A DNA stretch of 64,000 nucleotides from an uncultured Pelagibacteraceae bacterium (GTDB taxonomy: Bacteria; Pseudomonadota; Alphaproteobacteria; Pelagibacterales; AG-422-B15): positions 15,912 through 79,911 of the forward strand of contig CACHLP010000001.1 in assembly GCA_902580665.1 (NCBI GenBank), given 5' to 3'. Shown piece after piece: positions 6,631-34,980 of this stretch. The translations under genes and the position numbers were made by a program. How positions within the stretch are numbered: position 1 is the stretch's first letter; each line of letters begins with the position of its first letter. The notes below the pieces were generated by a model. The model had not been told where the DNA came from, ran no database searches, and worked only from the letters and a program-made list of their open reading frames with translations.

Positions 6631-6984
6631 TGCCAGATAATTGGATGACTGCTTTACTTGTAAAGAGGAAAGTCCGGGCTCCACAAGACAATGGTGCCGG
6701 GTAATACCCGGCGGGGGCGACCCCAGGGAAAGTGCCGCAGAAAACAAACCGCCTTAATTGAAATTTATAAGGTAAGGGTGAAAAGGTGAGGTAAGAGCTC
6801 ACCGCTTTTTTGGCAACAAAAAAGGCATGGTAAACCCCGCCAGGAGCAAGATCAAATAGAGTTACAATAGTTAGTCTTGACTGTAACTGGGTTGATCGCA
6901 TGATTCGTGTGGTAACACTCGAACTAGATGAATAGTCATAGATTTTTATTAAATCACAGAACCCGGCTTATAGATTATCTGGCA
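6631..6984 (+). ncRNA. rnpB: RNase P RNA (bacterial type A)
   Basis: Universal P4 strands GAGGAAAGTCCGGGCTCCA (6665-6683) and ACAGAACCCGGCTTA (6956-6970). Terminal P1 pairing of TGCCAGATAAT (6631-6641) with ATTATCTGGCA (6974-6984). The track ORF 6611..6901(-) is an artefact of this RNA. Confidence 0.92.
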
Positions 6985-7088
6985 ATTTTATATCTTATTA
7001 TTTTCAATAACTTATCAAATTTACTTAAAGTAAATTGTCACATAAGTTGCTGAAAAATATAACAATTCTAAAAAATCTGTAGACATAG

Positions 7089-7122
7089 CCCACTTGATCC
7101 CATACTATCCCATGTAATCCCA
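7089..7122. promoter_or_regulatory. candidate MraZ operator: four CCCA (= TGGGN on the opposite strand) boxes at exact 10-bp phasing
   Basis: CCCA at 7089, 7099, 7109 and 7119. The bottom strand reads TGGGA-N5-TGGGA-N5-TGGGA-N5-TGGGC. The array lies 58-91 bp upstream of the mraZ ATG. Confidence 0.6.
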
Positions 7123-7179
7123 ATTAAACCTAAATGAGGTAATTTGTTGATTATTTTAATAACTAACTTTTTTTATAAA

Positions 7180-7632
7180 ATGGCATTGTTTCTATCTACT
7201 TATATTAATCGCATAGACAAGAAAGGTCGTGTTTCAGTACCTTCATCATTCAGAAGTGTACTTGAACAAAACGGTCTTAAGGGAATGATTTGCTACCCTT
7301 CACCAACCCTTCAATCAATTGAAGGCTGTGCAATTAATCGAATGCAAAAAATAAGTGATGCGATCGAGTCTGCTGGACCTTTTAGTGAAGAAAGAAATAC
7401 TTTTTCATCTTCTATATTTGCAGACAGTCATCAAATTCATTTTGATCAAGAAGGTAGAGTAATAATACCTGGTGAATTAATTGTATCAGCAGGAATAAGT
7501 GATCAAGTTTCATTTGTAGGCTTGGGCGAAACATTTCAAATGTGGAACCCGACGACGTATGAAGATTATAAAAAAGATAAATCAAATAGTGCAAAGAACA
7601 ATTTAGCAAATCTCAAATGGAGTAATCAATAA
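7180..7632 (+). CDS. mraZ: transcriptional regulator MraZ
   Basis: Two SpoVT/AbrB-type repeats with DxxGR motifs (IDKKGRVSVP; FDQEGRVIIP). I prefer ATG 7180 (MALFLSTYINRIDKKGR) over the track's TTG 7144. Confidence 0.9.
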   Translation: MALFLSTYINRIDKKGRVSVPSSFRSVLEQNGLKGMICYPSPTLQSIEGCAINRMQKISDAIESAGPFSEERNTFSSSIFADSHQIHFDQEGRVIIPGELIVSAGISDQVSFVGLGETFQMWNPTTYEDYKKDKSNSAKNNLANLKWSNQ

Positions 7633-7657
7633 CTAATGAAAACAGGAGGATAATTTC

Positions 7658-9199
7658 ATGGTTTTAAATTTAAGCGTTCCAGAATTGAAAGAACTTAAGC
7701 CTAAGATAACTGTGTTTGGAGTCGGAGGTGCAGGTGGTAATGCAATCAACAATATGATTGAAGCAGGTCTATCAGGTGTTGAGTTTGTGGCAGCCAATAC
7801 AGATGCACAGGCCCTTTCTAAATCATTAAGTGACTCTAAGATGCAACTAGGAGTTCAAGTCACAAAAGGCCTTGGCGCAGGATCACATCCTGATATTGGA
7901 AAGTCTTCAGCTGATGAAACTAAGCATGAAATCATGGAACGTTTAGAGGGAACTAATATGCTTTTCATCACGGCTGGCATGGGTGGAGGCACTGGTACAG
8001 GCGCTGCACCAGTAATTGCACGGGTAGCAAAAGAATTGGGCATCCTCACTGTTGCAGTTGTCACAAAACCATTTCAATTTGAAGGAGCTGGCAGAATGCG
8101 TATCGCTGAGCAAGGCCTCAAAGAATTAGAACATTTAGTAGATACGACAATTGTAATACCTAACCAAAACTTATTCAAAGTCGCTGATGAAAAAACAACT
8201 TTCGCAGATGCTTTTTCAATGGCGGATGATGTTTTACATGCAGGGGTAAGAAGTATTACAGATTTAATGGTTGTTCCTGGACTTATAAATTTAGATTTTG
8301 CAGATGTAAAAACAATAATGAATAACATGGGGCGCGCAATGATGGGAACAGGAGAAGCTTCAGGTGACAATAGAGCCATTGAATGTGCCCATAATGCAGT
8401 AACGAATCCATTACTGGATGATTATTCATTGGATGGAGCAAAAGGACTTCTAATTAATATAACAGGCGGTACTGACCTTACGCTCCACGAAGTTGATAAA
8501 ATTACAAATGAGATACGCGAGCAGGTTCATCCAGATGCAGATGTAATTGTAGGATCAATTTTTGACGACAAACTTGAGGGCAAGGCAAGAGTTTCTGTTG
8601 TGGCCACAGGATTAGACTCACATCCAAAGCCAACTAAATCAATTGTAGATATACAAATTACAAGAAATTCTGCAGTACCATCAATGGCGGCTGCACCAGC
8701 AGCAAATTCAAACTCAGTACAAGCTTCGTTAAGTAATGAAGAGATGAACGAAGAAGTAATTGAAAATTCTGATCCATATATGTTCATGGATGGGGAGGAG
8801 TCAGATATTCACTCTGAAACTGACATTGAAGATACCCAAGTTTTGATAGAACCAGAAATATCAGAACCAGAAATGGCAGTTGAAGAAGAAGTTGAGCCAG
8901 AGCCAGTCACTGAACCAGAAATATCAGAACCAGAAATGGCAGTTGAAGAAGAAGTTGAGCCAGAGCCAGTCACTGAGCCTGAGATGGTCACTGAGGAAGA
9001 AGCTCCTAATAGCATTATGGATTTGATAAATGCTGATAGAGAAAATAATGATTCAGGGGCACCTGATTTGTTTAGTGGTCAAAATATTCGACAATTAGAC
9101 GACATGAATGCCTCTAAAGAAGAAGAAATGACTGAAGAAAATGAAACTGATCAAGATCTGTTAGAGATTCCTTCGTTCCTTAGAAGACAAAGTAAATGA
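7658..9199 (+). CDS. ftsZ: cell division GTPase FtsZ
   Basis: [13 protein letters not shown], tubulin signature [18 protein letters not shown]. Long acidic E/P linker and C-terminal peptide [21 protein letters not shown] at 7644-7649. Confidence 0.97.
8849..8974 (+). repeat. perfect 63-bp tandem duplication (2 copies) inside the ftsZ linker, followed by a degenerate partial third unit to about 9001
   Basis: 8849-8911 and 8912-8974 are identical base for base (gaaccagaaatatcagaaccagaaatggcagttgaagaagaagttgagccagagccagtcact). They encode [21 protein letters not shown] twice. Confidence 0.95.
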
Positions 9200-10119
9200 C
9201 GAAAAGAGAATTGGCTCATAAGCCGGTTCTTATAAAGGAGATAATAAAACTAATTGGGCCTAAAGATAATGAGACGTACTTCGATGCAACATTTGGAAAT
9301 GGAGGGTACTCGAAGGAATTTCTTGAGGTCAGCAACTGCAATATTATTGCAATTGACAGGGATCCATATGTTAGACAGATTGCTGAAGAATTTAAAAAAA
9401 AATACGGCAAAAGGTTTAATTTTTTCCATTCTAAATTCAGCGAAATCAACGAAGTTATGGAGAAAACCAAGGAAAAAAAAATTAACGGTTTCTTATTTGA
9501 TATAGGAGTTTCATCAATGCAGTTAGATTTTCCAGAAAGAGGCTTTTCTTTTATTAAAAAGGGCCCGTTAGACATGCGAATGGGTCAAAAAGGTACAACT
9601 GCTTATGATGTAGTAAATTCAAAAAGTCACGAAGAATTAGCTGATATTATCTATTATTATGGTGAGGAAAGAAACTCCAGGAGAATTGCTCGAGAAATTG
9701 AAACTTATCGCAAATCAAAAAAAATTGAAACAACTTTAGAATTAGCAGAAGTAGTTAAAAAATCTTTTCCAAATAAATATTATAAAAAACATCCTGCGAC
9801 TAAAACTTTTCAAGCTTTAAGAATCTATATCAATAACGAAATTGAAGAATTACATTCCGGTCTTAATCACGCATTAAAATACTTAAAAAAAAAGGGAAAC
9901 TTACATGTAGTTACCTTTCATTCTCTTGAAGATAGACTAGTGAAAAAATTTTTAAAAATAGTAAGTCAAAATAAAAAAGTAAATAAAGTTCTCAAACCTA
10001 GCAAAGAAGAGATAGAACATAATCCAAGATCTAGATCAGCTAAGTTAAGATTCTATGAGAAGAATAATTCAGAATTAAGTTATATACCAATTGAAGATTT
10101 GGGATTTAAACAATCATGA
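9196..10119 (+). CDS. rsmH: 16S rRNA (cytosine1402-N4)-methyltransferase RsmH (MraW)
   Basis: HKPVL...[10 protein letters not shown]...[10 protein letters not shown]...SLEDR. ATGA overlap with the ftsZ stop. Confidence 0.95.
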
Positions 10120-10460
10120 TTAGTAATTTATTCAAAATTTTGTCAGTGATCATCTTACTCATAGGATTGCTTGCAATAATGATCATAAAAAATATATCAG
10201 CTGAAAAACAAAACTATATCAATGAATTAGAAATTACTTTTAGAGAAGAACAGAAAAAGAATGAACTTTATAAAATAGAATGGAATCATATGATCTCTCC
10301 TATAAATTTAAAAAAAATATCTGAAATGGTTATATCCAATGATTATACTAAATACTTCGTAGTTTTAGACAAAGATGATCTAGGTAAAGAGGATCAAGTA
10401 TTTCAAGATATCATTACAGTTGATATGCCTTCTAAGAAAATTATAAGCCCTGCACGTTAG
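10116..10460 (+). CDS. ftsL: cell division protein FtsL
   Basis: Single N-terminal TM helix plus coiled-coil, with the alphaproteobacterial-type YKIEWNHMISPINLKKISE motif. Canonical position between rsmH and ftsI. Confidence 0.65.
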   Translation: MISNLFKILSVIILLIGLLAIMIIKNISAEKQNYINELEITFREEQKKNELYKIEWNHMISPINLKKISEMVISNDYTKYFVVLDKDDLGKEDQVFQDIITVDMPSKKIISPAR

Positions 10461-10466
10461 AATTTT

Positions 10467-12242
10467 GTGAGAAAGAAAAAAAATTCAGTAAAAAAGAAAA
10501 TAGACATTTATCAAAAAAGTTTCTCATTTACTCATCGATACAATGCTGAAAAATTTGCAATTGATAAAATAAATTCAATAAAGCAAAGCTTCGCACTTAA
10601 GATTAATAATCGTTTAATTTTGTCAGCAATAATATTCAGTACGTTGTTTATTGCTATTACAATTAAAATGATGGAAATTAATCTCTTTTATGTTGAAAAA
10701 AACCGTTATTTTGTATCATCAACGGATAAGGAGAGGCGTAACATATTAGATAGAAACAATATTTCTCTAACAGCTAACTTGCTAATGTCTGACGTTGGTA
10801 TTGACCCTAAAAAAATTTATGATCGTGAGGCATTCATTAAGAAAGTCTCATTATTGTATTATGACATATCAGCAATTGATTTAGAAAATAGAATTAATTC
10901 TGGTAAATGGTTTTATTTGAAACGTAATATAAGTCCCAATGAACTTCAGAAAATTATTGACCTAGGAGAAACTGGTATAGAGATAAGAGATATTTATAAA
11001 AGAAAATATCTTCATAAGGAGTTATTTAGCCATCTCATAGGAAAAGTAGATATTGATAACGATGGTATTTCAGGAATGGAAAAATCTTTCAATACATTAT
11101 TAAATAATCAAAATGAAAACGATGTTATTTCCTCTGTAGATACAAGAATACAACACATAGTAAGAGATGAACTATTGGACTCTATGAAATTATATAAAGC
11201 AACTGGTGGATCAGGAATTGTTATGGAGGTAAATACCGGAGAGATATTGTCAATGGTATCCCTTCCTGACTTTGACCCAAATAGCAAAAATTTTGATGAA
11301 AATTCTGTATTTAATAAAAATACTTTAGGTGTATATGAATTTGGATCAGTTATGAAAATATTTACAACCGCAATTGGTATTGAAGAAAATATATTTAAGC
11401 CTAATACGCTTTATGAAATTGATGACCATATTTATGTAGGTAAACATAAAGTACACGATGTTCATCGTCCCTGTAAAACTAAAAAATGTACAGTTGAAGA
11501 AATATTTGTGCACTCATCAAATGTTGGAACCATTAATATGATTAGAGATATTGGTCCAGAATTACAGAAGAATTATTTATACGATTTAGGTCTTTTAGAT
11601 CAAGTTATTGTAAACTTACCTGAACGAGCTGAGCCACTTATTCCAGATCCTTGGAGAATGGTTAATACTGAGTCCATTTCTTATGGTTATGGGCTGTCAA
11701 TTTCTCCTCTTCATTTAGCTTTAGCTACCTCGACTGTAATAAATGGTGGTTACATTATAGAGCCGTCATTAATCAAAAAAGATAATCAAGTTTTTAAAAA
11801 TCAAATATTTTCAGAGCAAACGAGTGAGATTATGAGATACTTACTTAATCGTGTTGTAGATGAAGGAACAGCAAAAGATGCTTTCGGAAAAGACTCTAAT
11901 AAAAAGTATGCTGGTAAGTATAGTGATTATAAATATCTAGTTGGAGGCAAGACAGGAACGGCTAGGAAAATAAACAACAAGTCATATGCCAGTGAAAAAA
12001 TGACAACATTTATTTCAGCTTTTCCGATCAATAAACCAAAATATCTTGTACTTATTTCATTAGATGATCCAAAAGGAATCGTGGGAGAATATGATACGCC
12101 CTATAATACATGGGGTTATACAGACGCGGGTTGGAACGCTGCAAGAGTTTCTCGGCAAATTATTGATAGAATAAGTCCTATTTTAGACACAAAAAGTAAA
12201 TATTTATCAAGTGATAACTTATTAATTAATACATCACTATAA
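10467..12242 (+). CDS. ftsI: peptidoglycan D,D-transpeptidase FtsI (PBP3)
   Basis: PBP dimerisation plus transpeptidase domains. SVMK (SxxK), SSN and KTGTA motifs. GTG start. Confidence 0.9.
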   Translation: MRKKKNSVKKKIDIYQKSFSFTHRYNAEKFAIDKINSIKQSFALKINNRLILSAIIFSTLFIAITIKMMEINLFYVEKNRYFVSSTDKERRNILDRNNISLTANLLMSDVGIDPKKIYDREAFIKKVSLLYYDISAIDLENRINSGKWFYLKRNISPNELQKIIDLGETGIEIRDIYKRKYLHKELFSHLIGKVDIDNDGISGMEKSFNTLLNNQNENDVISSVDTRIQHIVRDELLDSMKLYKATGGSGIVMEVNTGEILSMVSLPDFDPNSKNFDENSVFNKNTLGVYEFGSVMKIFTTAIGIEENIFKPNTLYEIDDHIYVGKHKVHDVHRPCKTKKCTVEEIFVHSSNVGTINMIRDIGPELQKNYLYDLGLLDQVIVNLPERAEPLIPDPWRMVNTESISYGYGLSISPLHLALATSTVINGGYIIEPSLIKKDNQVFKNQIFSEQTSEIMRYLLNRVVDEGTAKDAFGKDSNKKYAGKYSDYKYLVGGKTGTARKINNKSYASEKMTTFISAFPINKPKYLVLISLDDPKGIVGEYDTPYNTWGYTDAGWNAARVSRQIIDRISPILDTKSKYLSSDNLLINTSL

Positions 12243-12245
12243 TAA

Positions 12246-13682
12246 ATGACAAAAAGTCGTCTTCTGAAACAAATTAACTCAGATAAAATAAAATATAAAA
12301 ATATATGCTCTGATTCGAGAATTATAAATAAAGGTGATATTTTCTTTGCAATTCCAGGAAGTAACACTGATGGACTGAATTATGTTAATGATGCAGTAGC
12401 TAAAGGTGCATCTGCAATCGTTATTCCAATTAGAAAAAAATTAAAGATTTCATCAGACATCCCAATTTATAAAGTAAAAGATATCCGTAAAGAAATTTCT
12501 TTGGCAGCATTCATGGTCAATAGTGAATCAATAGAAAAGAAAATTGCTGTGACAGGAACAAATGGAAAATCTTCAGTATCTTTTTTTTTAAACTATATAT
12601 TATCTAATCTAGGAGAAAAAACCGCAACAATAGGTACGTTAGGTAATTCTTTGGTAAGAAAATATAATAATGGAAATCTGACATCTCCTGAACCAATTAA
12701 CCTATCAAAGCAGCTAAGAAAATTAAGCAAAAGTAAAATCAAGTATCTAATAATGGAAGCATCAAGTCATGGCTTACACCAAAAAAGATTTTATGGATTA
12801 AAATTTGATGCTTGCATACTTACAAATATTTCGCAAGATCATTTAGATTATCATAAAACTATGTCACATTACATAATGAGCAAGCTCAAACTTTTTTCTG
12901 ATTATATAAAAAATGATAGTAAAATTATAGTTAACGCTGATACTAAATATATTAATAGAGTTAAAAGTTATTTAAAGAAAGAAAGCAATATCAGTCCAAT
13001 ATATTTTCAAAAAAATAACAAATTTAAAATAGTTAAGATAAAAAAAAATAAAAATAACTCAACAATAGTAGATGTAAAATTTGGTAAGGATCTTAAAAAA
13101 TTTAAGTTTGCTAATTTTCCATTATTTCAAATTTATAACTTTTTACTGGCAACATTAACACTTCATTCTATGGGTCATAATTTAACTAAGATTCAAAAGT
13201 TAAGCCTAAAATGTCCTTCTGTACCAGGTCGCATGGAATTTGCAGGAAAAACAAGAAATAGTGCTTCTGTATACATTGATTTTGCGCACACACCTGATGC
13301 TCTTCAGAATGCATTAATAGAAGGCAGCAATCTTTGCAAATCAGAGCTGCATGTCGTTTTTGGATGTGGTGGAAACAGAGATTACTCAAAACGTCCAATA
13401 ATGGGAAAAATTGCCTCAAAATATGCAAATTACGTTGTTATTACTGATGACAATCCACGCTTTGAGAATGCAAAAAAAATTAGAAACGAAATCATTGGTG
13501 ATTGCAAAAACTTTTTCGAAATTCCAGATAGAAGAAATGCGATAAAACATACAATTAAGCAACTAAGAAAAGGAGATTTATTAATCATTGCAGGTAAGGG
13601 GCATGAAAAAAACCAAATCATTAATGGCAAGGCCTTCCCCTTTGATGATCTTAAAGTATCTAGAGGTTTTCTAAAATTATGA
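12246..13682 (+). CDS. murE: UDP-MurNAc-L-Ala-D-Glu:meso-DAP ligase MurE
   Basis: Mur ligase P-loop GTNGKSS, the DNPR motif typical of DAP-adding MurE, and dcw position. Confidence 0.9.
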   Translation: MTKSRLLKQINSDKIKYKNICSDSRIINKGDIFFAIPGSNTDGLNYVNDAVAKGASAIVIPIRKKLKISSDIPIYKVKDIRKEISLAAFMVNSESIEKKIAVTGTNGKSSVSFFLNYILSNLGEKTATIGTLGNSLVRKYNNGNLTSPEPINLSKQLRKLSKSKIKYLIMEASSHGLHQKRFYGLKFDACILTNISQDHLDYHKTMSHYIMSKLKLFSDYIKNDSKIIVNADTKYINRVKSYLKKESNISPIYFQKNNKFKIVKIKKNKNNSTIVDVKFGKDLKKFKFANFPLFQIYNFLLATLTLHSMGHNLTKIQKLSLKCPSVPGRMEFAGKTRNSASVYIDFAHTPDALQNALIEGSNLCKSELHVVFGCGGNRDYSKRPIMGKIASKYANYVVITDDNPRFENAKKIRNEIIGDCKNFFEIPDRRNAIKHTIKQLRKGDLLIIAGKGHEKNQIINGKAFPFDDLKVSRGFLKL

Positions 13683-15055
13683 AATCGAGTCATATTTCAA
13701 TTTCAGAGATTAATAATCTATTTAATACTAAGTATAGTGATATAAAAATTACAGGTGCATCACTTGATACAAGAACTTTAAAAAAAGGAAATATTTTTTT
13801 TGCAATTAAAGGAAAAAATAATGATGGTCATAAATTTATTAATCAAGCTGAGAAAAAAGGTGCCTCTATAGCTTTTGTCCAAAAAATTAACTCAAAAACT
13901 AGTCTTAAACAAATTAAGGTAAAAAACACTTTGTTTGCTTTATCATCTCTTGCTCGATATTACAGGTCCTTACTTAATACTCAAATTATTGGAATTACAG
14001 GTAGTGTAGGAAAAACTGGAACTAAGGATGCGATTTCGTTTATTTTAAAAGAGCATAAATATATTTTTTGCTCGAGACAGTCTTATAATAATAAATATGG
14101 AATACCATTAGAAATTTTAAATATGCCAAGAAAAACAAAATTTGGTTTTTTTGAATTAGGTATGAATCACTTTGGAGAGATAAAAAGCTTAGTAAAAATA
14201 TTAAAGCCAAATATTTCTATTATTCTAAATATTGAAAACGTACACTTAGGTAATTTTAAATCGTTAAAAGAGATTGCTGCAGCGAAAAGCGAAATCTTTA
14301 CATCTTCAAAAAATATAGATTCATTAATTCTTAATAAAGAGACCAATTATTATAATCTGTTATATAGATACTACAAAAATACTAATATAAAAAATTTTTA
14401 TAATTATAGTAAAAATAATAATTCAAATGTCTATATAAAAGAAAGAAAGGTAATAAAAAAAAATATTCAGCTTAAAGTTAATCTTCCAGGAGATAAATTA
14501 ATCAATTTTACTATTAGAATTGATCAGGAAAATTTAATTGATAATTGTTTAGCAATTATTACTTGCTTACATGCACTTAACATAGACTATAGAGTTATTA
14601 AAAAGTTTAAAAACGTACCCTTCACCAGTGGACGAGGAAATATGATTAGATGTAAGTATAATAGTTACAAACTTAAGCTCTATGATCATTCGTATAATGC
14701 GAGCCCAATTTCAATGAAGCAAACAATTGATATATTTGACAGATTAAAAGAAAAAAACATTGTTTATTTGATTGGTGATATGAATGAACTGGGTCAAAAA
14801 GCTAGTTACTACCACATTAATTTAATGAAGTTATTGAATAAGAAAAAATTTGAAAAATGCTTGTTTATTGGAAAACATTTCAAAAAGTTAGAAAACAAAA
14901 TTTGTGATAAAAAGATTTCTTTTTTTAGAGATATCAATCAGGTTATCGACAATCTCGATGAAATAATAGAGAGTAATTATACAATTTTTGCTAAAGGATC
15001 TAATTCAATTAATATTGGAAGATTAATCAGTCATCTTAAACAAGAAAATTTATGA
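13679..15055 (+). CDS. murF: UDP-MurNAc-tripeptide:D-Ala-D-Ala ligase MurF
   Basis: Mur ligase P-loop GSVGKTGTK, ELGMNHFGEI, and dcw position. Confidence 0.85.
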   Translation: MKSSHISISEINNLFNTKYSDIKITGASLDTRTLKKGNIFFAIKGKNNDGHKFINQAEKKGASIAFVQKINSKTSLKQIKVKNTLFALSSLARYYRSLLNTQIIGITGSVGKTGTKDAISFILKEHKYIFCSRQSYNNKYGIPLEILNMPRKTKFGFFELGMNHFGEIKSLVKILKPNISIILNIENVHLGNFKSLKEIAAAKSEIFTSSKNIDSLILNKETNYYNLLYRYYKNTNIKNFYNYSKNNNSNVYIKERKVIKKNIQLKVNLPGDKLINFTIRIDQENLIDNCLAIITCLHALNIDYRVIKKFKNVPFTSGRGNMIRCKYNSYKLKLYDHSYNASPISMKQTIDIFDRLKEKNIVYLIGDMNELGQKASYYHINLMKLLNKKKFEKCLFIGKHFKKLENKICDKKISFFRDINQVIDNLDEIIESNYTIFAKGSNSINIGRLISHLKQENL

Positions 15056-16134
15056 TACTACATATTTTAGAAAACTTAAATATCCCAGACTTATATAATT
15101 TCTTCAATTATCTTACTGTAAGGATGGGCTTCGCTCTTTTTACTTCTTTTTTTTTCATATTGTTATTTGGTCCTATATTAATTAGTAAGATAAGTTCCTA
15201 TCAGTCTATTGGACAGCCGATTAGAGAAGATGGGCCAGAATCGCATTTGATAGCAAAAAAAGGAACGCCAACCATGGGTGGAATTATCATATTGCTTTCC
15301 ATAATTGGGTCTATTTTACTTTGGGTAAACCCAGATAGTCTAATATCTTGGCCAGTTATATTTATACTAGTTTGTTTTGGTTTAATTGGTTTTGCAGACG
15401 ATTACTGTAAAGTTAGAAATAATTCAAGCAAAGGTATTTCAGCCAAAATACGAATATTTCTCCAGATTATTGTTTCACTTATATTTGTATATTGGATAAC
15501 TACATACCATCAAATTGATATCAAGCTTTTATATTTACCTTTTTTAAAAGATGTTTTTATCAATTTAGGTTTTTTTGCAATACTATTTATTTTAATTGTT
15601 ATCTTGGGATCAGCAAATGCAGTAAATTTGACTGATGGTCTAGATGGGCTTGCAATTGTTCCTATAATGATTGTTGCAGCAACATTTGCCGTAATTTGTT
15701 ATTTAGCCGGCAATACAATTTTTGCTGAGTATTTATATATAAATTATTTGCCAGGGGCAGGTGAGCTCGCTGTATTATGTGCAGCAATTATAGGATCAGC
15801 GCTAGGCTTTTTATGGTATAATGCTCCCCCTGCAATGGTGTTTATGGGCGACACAGGCTCCCTTTCACTAGGCGCTGCATTAGGCGCGATTAGCATTTTA
15901 TTAAAACAGGAAATAGTTTTAGCCATTGTTGGAGGAATCTTTGTAGCTGAAGCAATATCTGTAATATTGCAAGTCTCATCTTTTAAATTGACTGGAAAAA
16001 GGATTTTTAAAATGGCGCCATTGCATCATCATTTTGAAAAAAAAGGTCTACCAGAATCAAAAATTGTTATTCGTTTTTGGATAGTTGCAATAATTTTAGC
16101 ACTAATTGGACTAGCGACACTTAAAATCAGATAA
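15052..16134 (+). CDS. mraY: phospho-N-acetylmuramoyl-pentapeptide transferase MraY
   Basis: GTPTMGG, NAVNLTDGLDGLA, MGDTGSL, APLHHHFE. Confidence 0.97.
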   Translation: MILHILENLNIPDLYNFFNYLTVRMGFALFTSFFFILLFGPILISKISSYQSIGQPIREDGPESHLIAKKGTPTMGGIIILLSIIGSILLWVNPDSLISWPVIFILVCFGLIGFADDYCKVRNNSSKGISAKIRIFLQIIVSLIFVYWITTYHQIDIKLLYLPFLKDVFINLGFFAILFILIVILGSANAVNLTDGLDGLAIVPIMIVAATFAVICYLAGNTIFAEYLYINYLPGAGELAVLCAAIIGSALGFLWYNAPPAMVFMGDTGSLSLGAALGAISILLKQEIVLAIVGGIFVAEAISVILQVSSFKLTGKRIFKMAPLHHHFEKKGLPESKIVIRFWIVAIILALIGLATLKIR

Positions 16135-16138
16135 ATAG

Positions 16139-17461
16139 ATGATTAAACTCAAATCATTTAAGAATAAACACTTTCTTATTATTGGAATGGGAATTACAGG
16201 TATTTCCGTTTCCAATTCATTGCTTAAAGGTGGTGCAAATGTTTATTTCTGGGATGATGATCTGAAGAAAAGAAAAGCATCAAGTAAAAAGGGTTATCAA
16301 TTAATTAATGATCAAAATCTAACTAAAATAGATTACATCATGCCAAGTCCGGGTATTACCACTACGGGAAAAAATGCACATAAATACATTAAAAGATTAA
16401 AATCTAAAAAATGTAAGATAATTAGTGAACTTGATTTATTTCAACTTTATATAAATAGCATAAATAAATTAAAAAAAATTAAGATTGTTGGTATCACTGG
16501 GACTAACGGAAAATCTACAACTGTTTCCATGATTCATCATGCTTTAAAAAAAAATAATGTTAACTCAGCTTTGATTGGCAATATTGGGCAACCTATATTT
16601 TCCTCAAAAAAGTTAAATCATGGTATCTATATTTTGGAACTTTCATCATATCAGCTGGAGCAAGCAAAAATATTTAAACCAGATATATCATGTATATTAA
16701 ACCTAACACCAGATCATTTAGATCGTCATAATACCATGCATAGGTATGCTATCGCAAAGTGTAACATATTTCAGAATATGAGTGGAAGAAATGTTTGTTA
16801 TTATGACTCAAATAAAAGAATAAAAAAAATTGCTACTATGAAATTAGATAAGAGAAAACTTAAACTGCTAATTCCAGTAAAAAAAATTAATGACAGTTTT
16901 AAAAATAATAAGAAACTCAACTTGATATCAAAAAGATATAATATGCAGAACTTATTTTTTTCTTTTTTAATATTAAAAAAATTAGGCTTAAAGATATCAG
17001 ATATTTATAAGTCATTTTCTACATTTAATGGGCTGCCTCACAGACAAGAGATAGTTGCAAAGAAAAGGAATTTTATTGTGATAAATGATTCTAAATCGAC
17101 AAATTTTGAATCTTTAGTACTAGCATTAAACAACTTCAAGAATATAATTTTGATTTGTGGTGGACAAATAAAAAATAATAAAATCAATGTATTAGACAAA
17201 AACCAACACAATATTATTAAGGTGATAGTAATAGGTGAGACTAGAAATATTTTTTTTAATTATTTTAATAAGTACGTGGATACCTCATATGTAAAAACCT
17301 TATCCAAGGCGGTTAAAATGTCATTAACTATACCAAATATTGTGAATGGGCATTGCACTATTTTGTTTAGTCCTGGAGCAGCATCGTTTGATCAATACAG
17401 TAACTTTGAAGAAAGAGGAGACGATTTTAAAAAAAAAATAAAAGCTGAAATTTTAAAATGA
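16139..17461 (+). CDS. murD: UDP-MurNAc-L-Ala:D-Glu ligase MurD
   Basis: GTNGKSTT P-loop, SSYQLE, LNLTPDHLDRH, and dcw position. Confidence 0.9.
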   Translation: MIKLKSFKNKHFLIIGMGITGISVSNSLLKGGANVYFWDDDLKKRKASSKKGYQLINDQNLTKIDYIMPSPGITTTGKNAHKYIKRLKSKKCKIISELDLFQLYINSINKLKKIKIVGITGTNGKSTTVSMIHHALKKNNVNSALIGNIGQPIFSSKKLNHGIYILELSSYQLEQAKIFKPDISCILNLTPDHLDRHNTMHRYAIAKCNIFQNMSGRNVCYYDSNKRIKKIATMKLDKRKLKLLIPVKKINDSFKNNKKLNLISKRYNMQNLFFSFLILKKLGLKISDIYKSFSTFNGLPHRQEIVAKKRNFIVINDSKSTNFESLVLALNNFKNIILICGGQIKNNKINVLDKNQHNIIKVIVIGETRNIFFNYFNKYVDTSYVKTLSKAVKMSLTIPNIVNGHCTILFSPGAASFDQYSNFEERGDDFKKKIKAEILK

Positions 17462-18564
17462 CTAAGTCACAATTAGAAAAGTCCATCATAACTGATTGGA
17501 TTTATGAAATAAATAAACCAATATTTTTTTGTGTACTAATACTAATTGCAGTTGGACTATTTATAAGTCTTACGATTAATCCTGGCACATCAAGGTATAT
17601 TAATAATAATCTATTTTCATACTTTAATATTCAGGCACTTTATTTATTATCTGGATTTATTTTATTCATTTTATTTTCTTTTATAAATTATGAACGAATT
17701 ACAAATATTTCCATAATTATGTTTGTAGGTTTAATAATTGTCTTATTCTTAACATTAATTTATGGAGTTGAGATAAAAGGATCGAGGAGATGGATTAATC
17801 TAAAATATATTACAATAATGCCTATTGAACTGATTAAACCATTTTACTGCATCATACTTGCAGCTGTTTTAAATAATCCAAATTTAAGAAACAGTTTTAG
17901 AAATTATGCACTTAGTTTCAGCATTTATGCTTTTATAGCTGCAATATTAGTTTTTCAGCCAGATATTAGTCAATTATTTCTTGTTTCAGTAATATACTTT
18001 TCATCAATATTTATGAGTGGATTTAGCATAATAGTGCTTACTTCAATTATTCTTGCTGGTTGCGTATTTTTTGTTTTCATATATTTATCTAATTTTAATG
18101 TTCAAAATAGGATCAATTCCTTTTTATCGCCTAATGATTTTGACGCAACACAGACTGAATTGTCGCTTCAGGCAATCAAGCAAGGTGGCCTTATGGGTGT
18201 AGGCCCAGGAAATGGAGTATTAAAGAATAAAATTCCTGAAGCGAATTCAGATTATATATTTTCTGTTATTGCGGAGGAGTATGGGTTATTAGGCTGCTTA
18301 ATAATTTTGACAATATTCTTTATAATTTCCTATCAAGGATTCAAAAAAATATATAGTAGCAATAGCCACTTTATACAAATAAGTTTGTTTACCTTAATAA
18401 TATATTTTTGCCTACAAGCTCTTATTCATATTGGAGTAAATATTAGACTACTTCCAACTACTGGTATTACACTCCCTTTTATTAGTTATGGCGGCTCATC
18501 AGTTATAGGCATGTCAATCACTTGTGGTTTTATTTTATCATTATCTAAAAATAGACATAGTTGA
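17458..18564 (+). CDS. ftsW: SEDS-family lipid II flippase/peptidoglycan polymerase FtsW
   Basis: SEDS motifs (PEANSDYIFSVIAEEYG; LPTTGITLPFISYGGSS) and dcw position. Confidence 0.9.
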   Translation: MTKSQLEKSIITDWIYEINKPIFFCVLILIAVGLFISLTINPGTSRYINNNLFSYFNIQALYLLSGFILFILFSFINYERITNISIIMFVGLIIVLFLTLIYGVEIKGSRRWINLKYITIMPIELIKPFYCIILAAVLNNPNLRNSFRNYALSFSIYAFIAAILVFQPDISQLFLVSVIYFSSIFMSGFSIIVLTSIILAGCVFFVFIYLSNFNVQNRINSFLSPNDFDATQTELSLQAIKQGGLMGVGPGNGVLKNKIPEANSDYIFSVIAEEYGLLGCLIILTIFFIISYQGFKKIYSSNSHFIQISLFTLIIYFCLQALIHIGVNIRLLPTTGITLPFISYGGSSVIGMSITCGFILSLSKNRHS

Positions 18565-18579
18565 TGAGTAGGCAATAGC

Positions 18580-19638
18580 ATGAAAAAATTCTTTCTTGTT
18601 GGTGGTGGAACGGGTGGTCATTGCATACCTATGAGTGTATTATTTTCTGAAATAATTAAAAAAGATGAATGCTATATTTTAACAGATGAAAGAGGTCTTA
18701 AATATTTTGAGGATATATCAGCTAAGAAAAAAATATTAATAAAGAATTTAATTAATAAGCAAGGCAAAATTTCAAATCTGATTAATCTTCCATATCTTTT
18801 TATTCAGTCAATTCCCTATTATTTAAAATTAAGACCTGATTTCATTTTAGGCTTTGGTGGCTATTTTACTGTTCCAATAATGATTGCAGGGTGGTTGATG
18901 CGGTTCAAAATTTTCTTACATGAAGGTAATGCAATTATTGGAAAAGCAAATAGATTTTTATTAAACTTTACAAAGGATTTACTAACAAGCTTTGAAAATA
19001 CTTTAATCCCTGGCAAGAAAAAAGATATTAAAAATAAATTGGTTGGTCTTCCCATAAGAATAAATAAAGAGAATAAGGTTTTCAATAATGATTCGAGTAG
19101 TGATTTTGTGATATGTATAATGGGTGGCAGTCAAGGAGCACAAAATCTATCAATTAATATTGCTGAATCCATTAAAAGTGTTCAAGCTAACAGCAAAAAA
19201 AAGATTAAAGTCTTTCACCAGTGTAGATCAGAAGATTTAGAGACTCTAAAAGCTTTTTATACGACTCATAATATCAATAATGAGGTAAGAGTATTTTTTG
19301 ATGATATGACAAGAGTACTGTCACAATCTAATTTAGTGATTTCAAGATCAGGTTCATCAACAATTAATGAAATCATATATTATTGCATTCCTTCGATACT
19401 TATACCCTATCCGCATGCGGCAGACAATCACCAATATTACAATGCAACAAACTTGAATACATCAGAATGTACAAAAATTATTCCTGATGACTCTGTAAGT
19501 TTAGAAAATATTTTAAATTCAATTAATGAGATAATTAATGATAATGAAAAAGTGAATTTAATCAGGAACCGTTTGAAAGTTAGACGTATAAATAATCCGT
19601 CTAAAAATATATTAGATTATTTAGAGAGTTATTCGTGA
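18580..19638 (+). CDS. murG: UDP-GlcNAc:lipid I GlcNAc transferase MurG
   Basis: GGGTGGH G-loop, GGSQGA, SRSGSSTINE. Confidence 0.9.
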   Translation: MKKFFLVGGGTGGHCIPMSVLFSEIIKKDECYILTDERGLKYFEDISAKKKILIKNLINKQGKISNLINLPYLFIQSIPYYLKLRPDFILGFGGYFTVPIMIAGWLMRFKIFLHEGNAIIGKANRFLLNFTKDLLTSFENTLIPGKKKDIKNKLVGLPIRINKENKVFNNDSSSDFVICIMGGSQGAQNLSINIAESIKSVQANSKKKIKVFHQCRSEDLETLKAFYTTHNINNEVRVFFDDMTRVLSQSNLVISRSGSSTINEIIYYCIPSILIPYPHAADNHQYYNATNLNTSECTKIIPDDSVSLENILNSINEIINDNEKVNLIRNRLKVRRINNPSKNILDYLESYS

Positions 19639-21026
19639 AAATTAATAAAGAAACATTGATACATATAATAGGAATTGGTGGAATTGGTATGAGCGGTATT
19701 GCCGAAATTTTATCAGATATGCGATATAATGTTCAGGGCAGTGACATAAATATTAATTCAAACATACTTCGCTTAAACAAAAAAAATATCAAGACCTTTA
19801 GGGGACATAAGAAAGAAAACTTAAAAAATGTAAACTTGATTGTATATTCTACAGCAGTAAAAAATAGTAATATTGAGTTAAAATTTGCAAAAAAAAATAA
19901 TATTCCATCAATATCGAGAGCGGAAATTCTTTCTCAAATAGTAAAACTAAAAAATTCAATTGCTGTTTCAGGATCGCATGGAAAAACAACTACTACATCT
20001 CTTATTTCTTCAATTTTGAATGCTGCGAAAATGAACCCAACGGTTATTAACGGAGGTATTATTAACCAGTTTGGAACCAATACAAGACTAGGTCGAGGAA
20101 AATGGATGGTTGTTGAAGCAGATGAATCAGATGGAACGTTCATAAAATTACCTTCTACTATTGCTGTAGTAACTAATATCGATAAAGAACATCTAGACTT
20201 CTATAAAAATTATAACAATTTACTATTCCAATTTAAAAAATTTATTACGCAAGTTCCATTTTATGGATTTGCTGTAGTGTGTATAGATGACCCCTCAATA
20301 AGAAAAATAGTAAATAAAATTACTACAGCTAATATTATTACATATGGAGAGTCTAAAAAAAGTGATATTCAAAGTAAGAAAATAAGACACAGCAGTAATG
20401 GAGTAGTTTTCAATGTTGAGTTAAAAAAAATTGATAAAACAATTAAAAATATAAGTTTACCGATGCATGGTAATTATAATATTAGTAATGCCTTAGCTGC
20501 CATAGCCATTTCTTCAGAACTCAATGTTAATCATGCTACGATAAAGAAAGCCCTATCTAAATTCACTGGTGTACAAAGAAGACTTACGCAACTTTGGGAT
20601 AAAAAAAATGTCAAGGTCATAGACGATTATGCCCATCATCCAACAGAAATTAAAAATGTTATAGAGGGTCTTAAATACTCAAATCCAAAAAGAAAACTTA
20701 TCGTCATCTTTCAGCCGCATAGATATACACGACTGATAAATTTAAAAAAAGAATTTAGTAAATGTTTCTCGAGGTGCGATCAGATATTTGTATCTAATGT
20801 TTATTCAGCAGGCGAAAATACGCCGCATAATTTTAAATTACAATCACTTATAAAAAGTATCAAAAAAAATTCTAGAGTTAATACAAATTTTTATGAAAAT
20901 GATGAGCAGCTATTGAAATTAATTAAGTCTAGTAATAACAAACTCACCTTTTTATTCTTAGGTGCTGGAACAGTATCTCAGTGGGCTTCAGATTTTACTA
21001 AAAACTTAAAAAAAATATATGAATGA
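19635..21026 (+). CDS. murC: UDP-MurNAc:L-alanine ligase MurC
   Basis: IGIGGIGMSGIAE, GSHGKTTTTS, DDYAHHPTE. Confidence 0.93.
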   Translation: MKINKETLIHIIGIGGIGMSGIAEILSDMRYNVQGSDININSNILRLNKKNIKTFRGHKKENLKNVNLIVYSTAVKNSNIELKFAKKNNIPSISRAEILSQIVKLKNSIAVSGSHGKTTTTSLISSILNAAKMNPTVINGGIINQFGTNTRLGRGKWMVVEADESDGTFIKLPSTIAVVTNIDKEHLDFYKNYNNLLFQFKKFITQVPFYGFAVVCIDDPSIRKIVNKITTANIITYGESKKSDIQSKKIRHSSNGVVFNVELKKIDKTIKNISLPMHGNYNISNALAAIAISSELNVNHATIKKALSKFTGVQRRLTQLWDKKNVKVIDDYAHHPTEIKNVIEGLKYSNPKRKLIVIFQPHRYTRLINLKKEFSKCFSRCDQIFVSNVYSAGENTPHNFKLQSLIKSIKKNSRVNTNFYENDEQLLKLIKSSNNKLTFLFLGAGTVSQWASDFTKNLKKIYE

Positions 21027-21942
21027 AAACCAACAAATTCTAAAAGAAATATTTTTAAAAAACAAAGTAAAAGGTAATTACAAATTTGATTATAATTTGT
21101 CTAAATATAGTTGGTTTGGAATTGGGGGCAATGCCGAAATTTTTTACATACCATCAAGTTTAGAAGAATTACAGTTAGTGTTATCTGAAAAAGAAGAGAA
21201 TATAGATGTCACAGTTATTGGTTTAGGCTCAAATATAATTATTAGAGACGGAGGCATACCAGGCCTTGTTGTCAGATTAGGCAATGGATTCAACAATATT
21301 TCTCATAATAAAAATACAGTTTTTGCAGGAGCAGCAGTACAAGATAAAGTTTTATCAAAATATTGCTTGAAGAATTCAATAATAGGGTTTGAATTTTATT
21401 ATGGAATACCTGGTACTGTGGGAGGTGCTGCATGTATGAATGCAGGATGCTTCGGCTCTGAAACTAAAGATTTTTTCATTAAAGCTAAATGCTTGAGTAG
21501 CCAGGGAGAACATGTTGAACTGAATTATTCTGAAGAATTATTTTCTTATAGAAAAAATAATTTTTTAAATAAACACATAATCTGCGAGGTTCAATTCAAC
21601 AAAGAAATTGGAGATCCATTAACAATTAATAAAAGAATCGTTGAAATAAATGATCAAAGAAAAGAAACTCAGCCTCAAAAAGTGATGACTGCTGGTAGCA
21701 CTTTTAAAAATCCTTTTGATCGTAGCGAGTTCAAAGCTTGGCAATTAATCGATAAAGCGGGATTAAGAGAATATGAATTAAATGGAATTTCATTCTCAGA
21801 AAAACACGCAAATTTTATAGTCAACAGACAGAAGGACTCTGCTAATTTAATTGAAGATTTTGGTGAAAATATAAAAAAAGAAGTAAAGAATAGATTAGGC
21901 ATTGAATTAGAGTGGGAAATTAAAATTTTGGGTAATAGATGA
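21019..21942 (+). CDS. murB: UDP-N-acetylenolpyruvoylglucosamine reductase MurB
   Basis: FAD-binding GIGGNAE...GLGSNII, GIPGTVGGA, AGSTFKNP. Confidence 0.92.
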   Translation: MNENQQILKEIFLKNKVKGNYKFDYNLSKYSWFGIGGNAEIFYIPSSLEELQLVLSEKEENIDVTVIGLGSNIIIRDGGIPGLVVRLGNGFNNISHNKNTVFAGAAVQDKVLSKYCLKNSIIGFEFYYGIPGTVGGAACMNAGCFGSETKDFFIKAKCLSSQGEHVELNYSEELFSYRKNNFLNKHIICEVQFNKEIGDPLTINKRIVEINDQRKETQPQKVMTAGSTFKNPFDRSEFKAWQLIDKAGLREYELNGISFSEKHANFIVNRQKDSANLIEDFGENIKKEVKNRLGIELEWEIKILGNR

Positions 21943-22850
21943 GTATATACAATAAAGTTATGTTGCTTTATGGAGGCGTATCGGCAGAAAGAGAAATAAG
22001 CATTATAACTTCTAAAGAAATATCTAAGGCTTTAGTCAGATTAGGTTATGATGTAATTGAAATTGATGCAGACTTAGATCTTTCAGACCACATCTCTGAA
22101 CATAAGCCCGATGTAATATTTAATGGCTTACATGGTACGTGGGGAGAAGATGGAGAAGTTCAAAAAATTCTTGAATTAAATAATGTACCCTATACACATT
22201 CAGGAATTGAATCTTCTCAATTAGCAATGGATAAACATAGGTCTGCAGAACTATTTATTGAAAATAATTTTAATTACCCAATAACTAATCTGGTGAGTAT
22301 TAATAGTATTTATAAACACGCATTTCCTGAGTATCCGTTTGTTATAAAGCCAAGAAACGAAGGTTCCAGCGTGGGTGTTGGAATAATCAGGAATCAAGAA
22401 GAAAAAAAAAGATATTTAACAGATAATTCAAATAGAAATGAAGTTTTAGTACAGGAGTTTATAGATGGCCAAGAAATTAATGTTGCTGTAATTGGAAATG
22501 ATAAAACTGGCTCAATAGAGATTGATCCAAAAAACGAATTCTATGACTATGAGTCAAAGTATTTTGATAACGGCAAGACTAAGCATATAATCCCACCAAG
22601 AATCAATAAAAATCAACTAGAAGAGGTAGAAGACCTAGCTTTAAAGGCACATAAAATTCTTGGTTGTAAAGGAATTTCAAGAACAGAGTTTATTTTGGAA
22701 AAAAATAGCAATCAGTTTTATATTCTTGAACTCAATACTCAGCCAGGAATGACACCAACTTCATTAGTGCCAGAAATAGCAAAAGACAAGGGAATAGAAT
22801 TTGATGAACTTATTAATTGGATCTTAGAGGATGCAGGAACAAACCGTTAA
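21939..22850 (+). CDS. ddl: D-alanine--D-alanine ligase
   Basis: GGVSAEREIS, HGTWGEDG, ATP-grasp core, ELNTQPGMT. Confidence 0.93.
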   Translation: MSIYNKVMLLYGGVSAEREISIITSKEISKALVRLGYDVIEIDADLDLSDHISEHKPDVIFNGLHGTWGEDGEVQKILELNNVPYTHSGIESSQLAMDKHRSAELFIENNFNYPITNLVSINSIYKHAFPEYPFVIKPRNEGSSVGVGIIRNQEEKKRYLTDNSNRNEVLVQEFIDGQEINVAVIGNDKTGSIEIDPKNEFYDYESKYFDNGKTKHIIPPRINKNQLEEVEDLALKAHKILGCKGISRTEFILEKNSNQFYILELNTQPGMTPTSLVPEIAKDKGIEFDELINWILEDAGTNR

Positions 22851-23568
22851 ATATATAAATATTATATGTTCTATATTGATTACATTTTTTTTAATGATTT
22901 CAGTATCGATATATTACTTTCCAAACTTAGCATCAAAATATTTTATTTTATCTAAAATAACCATTAACGGTTCAGAAAAATCTAATATAAATATAATCAA
23001 AAAAGAAATATATAATCATACCTCTGATTTATTATCTTTAGATTTAAAAGAAATAAAAGAAATTCTTGAGCAAGAGCAATGGATCAAAAGAGTAAACCTA
23101 AAGAAAGTTTACCCATCCACATTAGTATTAGACATTATTGAAAATGATCCATATGCAATTTTAAGAGATAAAGGTAAATATTATCTAGTAGATATTGATG
23201 GAACAATTATTACTGAAAAAAATAAAGATGATGAACTTGAAAATTTTATTATTATTTCAGGGGATGAGTCACCTCTAGCACTAAAAGGCCTTGTTAAGGA
23301 GCTGAATATTCATTTTTCTGAACTGATTTCACAACTGAATAAATTAGATTTTATAGAGAGAAGAAGATGGAATATAACTTTAAAAAATAATTTATTAATA
23401 AAATTACCAGATTCAAAAATTGATAAAGCACTAGAAAACCTAAAGAACCTATTTGTTAATGAAAAAGTATTGCAGAGTAATATAATTGAAATTGACTTAA
23501 GAATTGAGGGTAGGGCATCTTTGAAGGTAGATGAGGGAAAGATTAATTATGGTTTAAATGATATCTAA
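22831..23568 (+). CDS. ftsQ: cell division protein FtsQ
   Basis: N-terminal TM helix plus POTRA-like region (EQWIKRVNLKKVYPSTLVLDIIEN). Position between ddl and ftsA. Confidence 0.75.
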   Translation: MQEQTVKYINIICSILITFFLMISVSIYYFPNLASKYFILSKITINGSEKSNINIIKKEIYNHTSDLLSLDLKEIKEILEQEQWIKRVNLKKVYPSTLVLDIIENDPYAILRDKGKYYLVDIDGTIITEKNKDDELENFIIISGDESPLALKGLVKELNIHFSELISQLNKLDFIERRRWNITLKNNLLIKLPDSKIDKALENLKNLFVNEKVLQSNIIEIDLRIEGRASLKVDEGKINYGLNDI

Positions 23569-24758
23569 TGTCACAAAGAAATATTTTCAGCGCAATTGAT
23601 ATACGTTCCGATAAAATAATTTGTTTAATTGCGCAAGAGTTGGAAATTATAAACCGTGGTAAAATTCTTCAATTAATTGGTATTGGCATCTCAAAACTGC
23701 CAATAAATTGTATCAAGCCGCTCTCACTGCCACACGTGGAAATTAGCGATTATATAAAAAATGCAATTACAAAGGCTGAATATGAGGCAAATGTAAAAAT
23801 TACAGATGTTTTTGTAAGTATCTCGGAAAATATGACTTCAGAATATATTGATTTTAAAATTGAGAACGAAAATAATTTAATTGATGAAGATCACATAAAA
23901 GAATTTTTTAGGTCAAAATTATTTACCGGTTTATATACAAAGTTAAAAGAGCCATTGCATTCTTTTCCGATAAGTCACCGTATTGATAACAGAAAAAGTG
24001 TATCAGACCCGATTGGAATGAAGGCTAATAATCTTCTTACAAAATGGCATATAATCTCAGTATCAAAAGATTATCTTGAAATAATATATAAAACATTTCT
24101 GGAGATGGATCTAAATTTAAAACAAATAGTTTCTAGTAATTATTCAACAAGTCTAGCAGTATTAAATGAAGAAGAGTCTGACCAAGGCGCTATAACTATT
24201 GAAGTACAAAAAAATAAAACGGTCTTATCCTATACTTTTGATGGTCAATTAATTGGATTTGATATAATAAGAATAGGAACCTTCCATTTCACCAATGATA
24301 TATCACAAATAAAATCTCTCACACTTGCGGAGGCTGAGAACATAAGAAAAAAGATTGATTTTTTTGATAAAGATAAAAAAAAGGATAAAGAACTCGATAA
24401 ATATTATGATATTTATTTGTCTCGGGCTGAAGAGCTGACAAAAATTATTTCGACTACAGTAATGAAATCAAGGTTTAATTCGCTAGTATCAAACTCAATT
24501 ATACTTACAGGGTATGGAGCAAAATCAATTAACATTCAAAAACTAATTAAAAATAAATTTACTAATTCATCATTTAGGCTGGGTTCAACAAGAAAAATAA
24601 ATGGTTCCAAGACCTATCTCGATAATCCGTCATTAACTTCAAGCTTCGGTTTACTTTCTTATGCCACAAACCACGACTTAGAGGGTGAGACAAGCAATGA
24701 AAATCCACCAAAAAAATCAACATTATCAATAATTTATAATTTTTTTCGGAACTTATAA
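23568..24758 (+). CDS. ftsA: cell division protein FtsA (divergent)
   Basis: Actin-like fold signatures (AIDIRSDKI...; ILTGYGAK) and a C-terminal amphipathic tail SIIYNFFRNL. Canonical position after ftsQ. Confidence 0.8.
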   Translation: MSQRNIFSAIDIRSDKIICLIAQELEIINRGKILQLIGIGISKLPINCIKPLSLPHVEISDYIKNAITKAEYEANVKITDVFVSISENMTSEYIDFKIENENNLIDEDHIKEFFRSKLFTGLYTKLKEPLHSFPISHRIDNRKSVSDPIGMKANNLLTKWHIISVSKDYLEIIYKTFLEMDLNLKQIVSSNYSTSLAVLNEEESDQGAITIEVQKNKTVLSYTFDGQLIGFDIIRIGTFHFTNDISQIKSLTLAEAENIRKKIDFFDKDKKKDKELDKYYDIYLSRAEELTKIISTTVMKSRFNSLVSNSIILTGYGAKSINIQKLIKNKFTNSSFRLGSTRKINGSKTYLDNPSLTSSFGLLSYATNHDLEGETSNENPPKKSTLSIIYNFFRNL

Positions 24759-34973: not shown

Positions 34974-34980
34974 ATTATTT

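Follow-up and report, generated by a model that had tools for sequence, protein, structure and literature searches.

The cluster of division and cell-wall genes (dcw) ranks among the best-conserved gene orders of bacteria. In E. coli it runs mraZ-rsmH-ftsL-ftsI-murE-murF-mraY-murD-ftsW-murG-murC-ddlB-ftsQ-ftsA-ftsZ-lpxC, and almost everywhere ftsZ comes last, beside ftsA. At that place, internal promoters dedicated to ftsZ drive its expression and fix how much FtsZ is made relative to FtsA; in E. coli, this ratio is determined in part by promoters within the ddlB-ftsQ-ftsA region, and the primary papers on these ddl, ftsQ, and ftsA promoters for ftsZ are reportedly those of de la Fuente from 2001 and of Vicente from 1998 (cited in PMC5089854). 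Here, we analyze the dcw cluster in a stretch of 64,000 nucleotides (the window) from contig CACHLP010000001.1 of an uncultured Pelagibacteraceae bacterium, which belongs to SAR11, the ocean's most abundant clade of bacteria. In this cluster, ftsZ (7658-9199, + strand) is located between mraZ and rsmH. We conclude that the relocated position of ftsZ is real, old, and common to the whole clade.

Three described systems are close enough to be compared with this locus. With the canonical proteobacterial cluster (that of E. coli, with murB included in the alphaproteobacterial version), the SAR11 cluster shares its genes, their common strand, the tight packing, mraZ in the first position, and the order of all genes except ftsZ. 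It differs in that ftsZ is second rather than last and so beyond the reach of ddl, ftsQ, and ftsA promoters, and in that ftsA abuts lpxC. In the reduced dcw cluster of Mollicutes, such as mraZ-mraW-ftsA*-ftsZ of Mycoplasma genitalium, ftsZ is also close to a MraZ-regulated promoter with four boxes and belongs to its operon (PMC12957436, PMC8475190). There, however, it is the deletion of the cell-wall genes in between that brings ftsZ close, and the gene keeps its last place, after ftsA, while SAR11 retains all of the cell-wall genes and it is ftsZ itself that is shifted ahead of rsmH. The third system is the MraZ operator. Published MraZ boxes consist of GTG(G/T) with a 6-nt spacer, and a promoter usually has three of them, or four in the case of Mycoplasma (PMC12957436); in the Pmra promoter of E. 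coli K-12, three GTGGG direct repeats on the coding strand closely follow the -10 element.

The open reading frames (ORFs) of the window, whose GC content is 32%, were assigned using the ORF list and NCBIfam profile models. On the + strand, the order is rnpB, mraZ, ftsZ, rsmH, ftsL, ftsI, murE, murF, mraY, murD, ftsW, murG, murC, murB, ddl, ftsQ, ftsA, lpxC, bamD, ligA. The core dcw genes are complete, co-oriented, and contiguous, with mraZ first, but there is no terminal ftsQ-ftsA-ftsZ block: ftsZ lies between mraZ and rsmH, ca. 14.4 kb from ftsA, and lpxC comes after ftsA. The ftsZ product (513 amino acids) comprises a GTPase core, a variable acidic linker, and a C-terminal FtsA-binding peptide. 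The whole protein scores 409.1 bits with the equivalog model TIGR00065 (cutoff 295.2), both the tubulin signature GGGTGTG and the conserved C-terminal peptide are present in its translation, and PF00091 and PF12327 are on record for near-identical FtsZ homologs. An exact look-up of this protein in the assembly collection gave no record. Since it is 88-98% identical to FtsZ from Pelagibacteraceae single-cell genomes, the window can be assigned to SAR11. An earlier, sequence-only reading of the window had called ftsZ at 7658-9199 and described the remaining dcw genes as standing in textbook order. The call is borne out by TIGR00065, the signature, and the C-terminal peptide, and the order by the ORF map and the NCBIfam models.

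The synteny comparison proposed in that reading was carried out by mapping the dcw proteins of the window onto 80 ftsZ loci retained from a scan of species-representative genomes. In 53 out of 53 Pelagibacterales loci (L001-L051, L060, and L072), ftsZ is flanked by mraZ and/or rsmH; mraZ is followed by ftsZ in 52 of them, and ftsZ by rsmH in 35. These loci come from independent single-cell genomes, metagenome-assembled genomes (MAGs), and one closed chromosome (CP136340). The other 27 loci, most of which have alphaproteobacterial sequences (from Hyphomonas, Paracoccus, Rhodospirillales, Hyphomicrobiales, and others) and which include a few MAGs with other phylum labels, all have the canonical ftsQ/ftsA-ftsZ order, with lpxC(-bamD) next wherever the region is covered, except in L052. 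The L052 locus (CAKZLM010000030.1, 9980-13340, 47% GC, labeled "uncultured Alphaproteobacteria") is the nearest canonical-order outgroup by FtsZ, and has ftsA-ftsZ-bamD with no lpxC match in between. A 34%-GC "Rhodospirillaceae" MAG with the canonical order (L058) was suspected to be HIMB59-like, and was rejected as such when Telmatospirillum and Magnetospirillum proved to be the relatives of its FtsZ, which makes it a relative of Rhodospirillales. Because the same arrangement is present in all 53 independent Pelagibacterales loci, a misassembly is excluded, and the clade can be said to have this order as its rule.

The ampD(ybjR)-rnpB-mraZ-ftsZ order of the window is also that of "Ca. Pelagibacter ubique" HTCC1062, where ftsZ is SAR11_0032 (PMC3870248), mraZ is SAR11_0033, and the RNase P RNA lies between mraZ and ybjR, SAR11_0034 (PMC2704228). 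Since the tags SAR11_0033 and SAR11_0032 are consecutive, the adjacency of mraZ and ftsZ has been implicit in the HTCC1062 annotation, public since 2005. Being both the norm for the clade and implicit in that annotation, the mraZ-ftsZ order characterizes the lineage rather than this particular genome.

Both borders of the relocated gene are tight. mraZ and ftsZ are separated by a 25-bp spacer (7633-7657, + strand) with the Shine-Dalgarno (SD) sequence AGGAGG at 7644-7649, which ends 8 nt before the ftsZ ATG. Of the 50 other loci covering this junction, 46 have a spacer of 25 bp, and L041 and L043 have one of 24 bp; AGGAGG is kept in all of these spacers except those of L047 and L048 (AGGAGA). 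In the deep-lineage loci L050, L060, and L072, the spacer is 19-34 bp long and contains GGAG. At the opposite border, the ftsZ stop codon and the rsmH start codon overlap in ATGA (9196-9199, + strand). This overlap, which points to operon integration, is identical in 32 out of 32 Pelagibacteraceae loci that cover the border, while the deep-lineage loci (n = 3) have a 13-21 bp gap between ftsZ and rsmH and no ATGA overlap. A terminator scan revealed no consensus terminator at either ftsZ border. The junctions are near-invariant although FtsZ identity among those lineages spans 72-98%; in an alignment of 46 distinct sequences, mean entropy of the spacer and promoter region is 0.25-0.31 (0.31 for the mraZ-ftsZ intergenic region), compared with 0.5-1.0 at mraZ synonymous sites. 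The 25-bp spacer, the AGGAGG, and the ATGA had all been reported in the sequence-only reading, and are found in the sequence as described. Its view that ftsZ is integrated into the operon rather than freshly inserted stands as well, with mraZ-ftsZ seen in 52 assemblies and ftsZ-rsmH in 35.

That reading had also considered that the junctions with mraZ or rsmH might be misassembled. The sequence of the linker gives some ground for such a concern. The linker of the window's FtsZ carries a perfect 63-bp x 2 tandem repeat (8849-8976, + strand; Tandem Repeats Finder, 100% match, score 256) and encoding a 21-residue unit two times over, and about one third of SAR11 contigs break in the linker: the contig ends between approximately residues 340 and 450 of FtsZ in about 18 out of 53 contigs (L012, L015, L021, L026, L032-L038, L040, L041, L043-L046, and L048). 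The linker repeat region is thus a recurrent break point of short-read assemblies. FtsZ length among SAR11 loci ranges from 487 to 606 amino acids. The breaks, however, are internal to ftsZ and do not fall at its borders, and the same 25-bp spacer and ATGA recur in dozens of assemblies made independently from single cells, metagenomes, and isolates, a closed chromosome among them. An artefact at either junction is effectively refuted, and misassembly is answered in the negative within the reach of these data.

At the canonical site, ftsA ends with a stop codon at 24756-24758, and the gap that separates it from lpxC, i.e., the vacated ftsZ site, is 68 bp long (24759-24826, + strand). A tblastn search with FtsZ in six frames of the whole 64-kb window revealed neither a second ftsZ copy nor a remnant; the gap is as short and as free of ftsZ sequence as had been claimed. 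A 6-bp hairpin, TATCAC/GTGATA, noticed earlier at 24787-24802, is indeed present in the gap, and is kept in close relatives only. The motif AATCTTTGTCT with a downstream TATAAA (24776-24815) is kept down to 43% FtsA identity (L082, L086, L088, L089, and L090), and may be an lpxC promoter or another control element. To the two junction-covering loci (L082 and L086) among the six recovered in a metagenome scan with FtsA, neighbourhood look-ups of FtsA homologs added further contigs. In L082, L086, L088, L089, L090, and the P0209 contig, lpxC directly follows ftsA with gaps of 64-77 bp; the FtsA identities of these six SAR11 contigs to the window are 97, 85, 60, 51, 48, and 43%. Counting the window, all seven SAR11 sequences that span the junction have ftsA and lpxC side by side, while ftsZ comes next after ftsA in the case of the nearest non-SAR11 FtsAs (21-24% identity).

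The ftsA gene itself (23568-24758, + strand, 396 amino acids, weak SD) is of a divergent SAR11 type, and its score with TIGR01174 (158.5 bits) is below the cutoff of 175.85. SAR11-type FtsAs are 43-97% identical to the FtsA of the window and are all ca. 395 amino acids long; identity of the next FtsAs found drops to 21-24%. FtsZ contrasts with the divergent FtsA in this respect, for its core is at least 79% identical in the matches ranked above the first named non-SAR11 FtsZ (70%).

The empty canonical site bears on another explanation, namely that the ftsZ of the window is a paralogue and a functional ftsZ resides elsewhere in the genome. Our view of this genome is 64 kb, and FtsZ paralogues do occur in some Alphaproteobacteria, those of Hyphomicrobiales being the subject of a preprint. 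On the other hand, the protein scores above the equivalog cutoff and is complete in its linker and C-terminal peptide, the window and six other SAR11 contigs have no ftsZ at the canonical site, each SAR11 genome among the 80 kept scan loci has one ftsZ locus, and SAR11_0032 is called ftsZ in the HTCC1062 papers. We consider a paralogue very improbable; the second ftsZ that the sequence-only reading had thought might exist downstream of an ftsA elsewhere is not found as far as the data reach, that is, in the 64-kb window and at the canonical site of the SAR11 contigs.

To determine the relationships of the relocated gene, a neighbour-joining tree was built from the GTPase core of FtsZ, dereplicated to 28 sequences, with 200 bootstraps. 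The mraZ-linked FtsZs form one clade (bootstrap 158/200) with two deep branches, marine Pelagibacteraceae of ca. 31% GC and a group of 26-28% GC (CODY6, L060, and L072). A literature search on the low-GC group turned up no paper with CODY6 as a genome name. The closest FtsZs outside the SAR11 clade are alphaproteobacterial, with 64-70% core identity. These data fit a single move of the native ftsZ inside the cluster, in which the gene left its ancestral position behind ftsA and came to lie between mraZ and rsmH, in an ancestor of Pelagibacterales. A xenologous replacement, in which insertion of a foreign ftsZ beside mraZ was followed by deletion of the native gene behind ftsA, would lead to an identical end state, and no scar at either site separates the two routes. 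Yet SAR11 FtsZ is monophyletic and groups with FtsZ of Hyphomonas, Paracoccus, Marinicauda, and Parvibaculum (64-70% core identity), and it retains the long acidic linker and C-terminal peptide of the alphaproteobacterial style. Because SAR11 FtsZ is monophyletic and its nearest neighbours are alphaproteobacterial, a native move within the cluster is favoured, and acquisition of a foreign copy appears improbable.

The region upstream of mraZ was inspected for the signals that would drive the relocated gene. It is bounded by rnpB, encoding the RNase P RNA of bacterial class A (6633-6986, + strand; Rfam RF00010, 320.7 bits, full length), which limits the control region of the operon to ca. 160 bp. 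A consensus scan predicts a Pmra-type dcw promoter at 7080-7108 (+ strand), with the -35 element TAGACA (7080-7085), a 17-nt spacer, and the -10 element TACTAT (7103-7108); both hexamers are conserved over ca. 45 SAR11 loci. The same scan detected no + strand consensus promoter between 7109 and 7658. Overlapping the promoter spacer, the -10 element, and the start region is an array of CCCA boxes on the + strand (TGGG on the - strand), found by pattern scan at 7089, 7099, 7109, and 7119, with a fifth box at 7129 that reads CCTA here and CCCA in relatives (7089-7132 overall, - strand, 10-bp period). The four-box CCCA pattern (7089-7122) occurs once in the window and not once in 100 shuffles, and conservation of the array extends across SAR11 loci, L050 and L060 of the deep lineages having three boxes. 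We interpret the array as a putative MraZ operator, to which binding is predicted. Like E. coli Pmra, the promoter in front of mraZ has three or more direct repeats with TGGG as their core, spaced at a 10-nt period; core and period agree with those of the published MraZ boxes. The predicted SAR11 operator differs in having four to five boxes (three in the deep lineages), which read TGGGA on the template strand and begin inside the -35/-10 spacer. The sequence-only reading had assumed a MraZ-controlled promoter upstream of ftsZ. The assumption gains sequence support from the conserved -35 and -10 elements and from the four to five TGGG boxes with their 10-bp period, unique in the window, while the control itself is still a matter of prediction.

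mraZ (7144-7632, + strand; NCBIfam MraZ model NF001477, E = 3e-45) probably starts at TTG 7144 or TTG 7147 and not at the alternative ATG 7180: GAGGT is found ahead of the TTG codons at 7136-7140, and both this sequence and the resulting 12-codon in-frame extension are conserved. The extension is open and near-invariant in nucleotides across marine SAR11. Alternatively, it could be a regulatory leader.

Translation signals were compared by computing SD energies against the anti-SD sequence for 56 putative genes of the window. The values were -10.3 kcal/mol for ftsZ, -6.9 for mraZ, -2.2 for ftsA, and -1.0 for rsmH, with a window median of -2.95. Within the operon, the SD of ftsZ exceeds all others in strength by a wide margin, with that of mraZ next. 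The sequence-only reading had called it the strongest in the window; this is approximately right, as it is within the top three among the 56 putative genes.

Based on these observations, we propose that a native ftsZ moved once and was kept, that it is transcribed from the MraZ-operated promoter ahead of mraZ, and that its position and SD set a high FtsZ:FtsA ratio. We put the probability of this reading at roughly 70%. In this scheme, ftsZ would be co-transcribed with mraZ from a single promoter upstream of mraZ, and, as four to five MraZ-type boxes overlap that promoter, MraZ autoregulation would reach ftsZ and act on it directly. A high FtsZ:FtsA ratio would result from the promoter-proximal place of ftsZ in an operon of ca. 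17.6 kb, and also from the strongest ribosome-binding site of the operon (AGGAGG), as against the very weak site of ftsA; translational coupling of ftsZ into rsmH would be a third contributor. The ratio would thus be set without the internal promoters of the ftsQ/ftsA region that are used in E. coli.

Several points weigh against this reading. Both co-transcription and MraZ binding are inferred from the sequence, and the transcription start is a predicted one. The promoter scan yielded 13 sites versus 12.8 expected from shuffled sequence; the scan being no richer than that, it is position and conservation that the dcw promoter call depends on. The boxes, with TGGG on the template strand in SAR11, are not on the coding strand as they are in E. 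coli. The tree is a simple neighbour-joining one, and its support for a single mraZ-linked clade is moderate (79%). With rnpB a short way upstream, on the same strand and without a consensus terminator, read-through from it could add MraZ-independent transcription. In the interval between rnpB and the dcw promoter (6987-7079), no consensus terminator was found; there is only an AT-rich hairpin at ca. 7008-7050 (z = -2.4) that lacks a U-tract. The third-codon entropy in the last 45 nt of mraZ is 0.51, making this segment somewhat more conserved than most of the gene; a hidden internal promoter could be located there, or the conservation could merely reflect the translation-initiation region of ftsZ.

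Some of these points are also what an explanation without regulatory meaning would draw on. According to it, the position of ftsZ is real, but the gene is expressed mainly from a promoter of its own toward the 3' end of mraZ or through rnpB read-through, and the arrangement is neutral, frozen by the very strong conservation of synteny in SAR11. Promoter-like sites at chance frequency in AT-rich DNA, the mild synonymous-site conservation at the mraZ 3' end, rnpB directly upstream with no consensus terminator, and the unusually conserved SAR11 gene order reported overall (PMC3815206) all agree with it. It is harder to reconcile with the lack of a + strand consensus promoter at 7109-7658, with a spacer of just 25 bp that is near-invariant, with the ATGA overlap that indicates operon integration, and with the conserved MraZ-type operator immediately upstream. 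We therefore regard a neutral position as a serious but rather unlikely alternative to transcription of ftsZ from the MraZ-operated promoter.

Other genes of the window follow the expected pattern. rsmH (mraW; 9196-10119, + strand) matches TIGR00006 with 311.8 bits. The twelve genes ftsL, ftsI, murE, murF, mraY, murD, ftsW, murG, murC, murB, ddl, and ftsQ (10116-23568, + strand; ORF list and NCBIfam) are in canonical order and are mainly joined by overlaps or few-bp gaps. Two of them are named chiefly from their position, as their matches are weak and far under the curated cutoffs: ftsL (10116-10460, E = 2.9e-4) and ftsQ (22831-23568, E = 1.8e-9). lpxC (24827-25756, + strand; TIGR00325, 301.8 bits) starts with ATG 24827, with an alternative in-frame TTG at 24818. 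bamD and ligA come next, a succession shared with other Alphaproteobacteria; outgroup loci have ftsZ-lpxC-bamD(-ligA). A two-piece (permuted) alphaproteobacterial transfer-messenger RNA gene with the tag peptide ANNKLALAA is present at 34943-35276 on the - strand.

A full-text literature search found no paper that remarks on the position of ftsZ in SAR11; earlier notice in the dcw survey of Megrian et al. 2022 is possible. The order of ftsZ is not mentioned in the SAR11 cell-cycle preprint (10.1101/2025.06.25.661606), in the HIMB59 synteny paper, or in the AEGEAN-169 paper. The string "mraZ-ftsZ" was met only as a label, in three papers on transcription-replication interaction and genome recoding, none of them on SAR11.

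SAR11 breaks the rule that governs the dcw cluster, and the exception is fixed, ancient, and tightly integrated. The relocation provides a discrete synteny character for delimiting Pelagibacterales and would serve as a clean rare-genomic-change marker for true members of this group, e.g., in the case of the disputed HIMB59/AEGEAN-169 and of subclade IV. Should an independent ftsZ promoter exist, the finding would shrink to a lineage-specific curiosity of gene order. The single-promoter model for ftsZ fits a streamlined lineage stripped of many division and cell-cycle regulators: SAR11 mostly or entirely lack minC, minD, mipZ, ftsE, chpT, dam, zipA, and sepF, and an imbalance in Z-ring stoichiometry was suggested as a possible basis of SAR11 cell-cycle fragility by authors who called for expression studies (10.1101/2025.06.25.661606). 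Our analysis offers a concrete hypothesis for how FtsZ dosage may be set in a streamlined cell with few division regulators, a question that this recent study left open. More tentatively, the relocation could be an adaptive rewiring, in which ftsZ came first behind a multi-box MraZ operator and received a maximal ribosome-binding site, and control by multiple promoters and cell-cycle regulators, as used by other bacteria, was replaced by a fixed, position-encoded FtsZ:FtsA stoichiometry under a single autoregulatory loop. This we hold to be possible but doubtful. Adaptive hard-wiring of dosage looks the same here as a neutral rearrangement that became fixed. If true, such rewiring would help to explain the loss of coordination between division and replication in SAR11 under shifting conditions.

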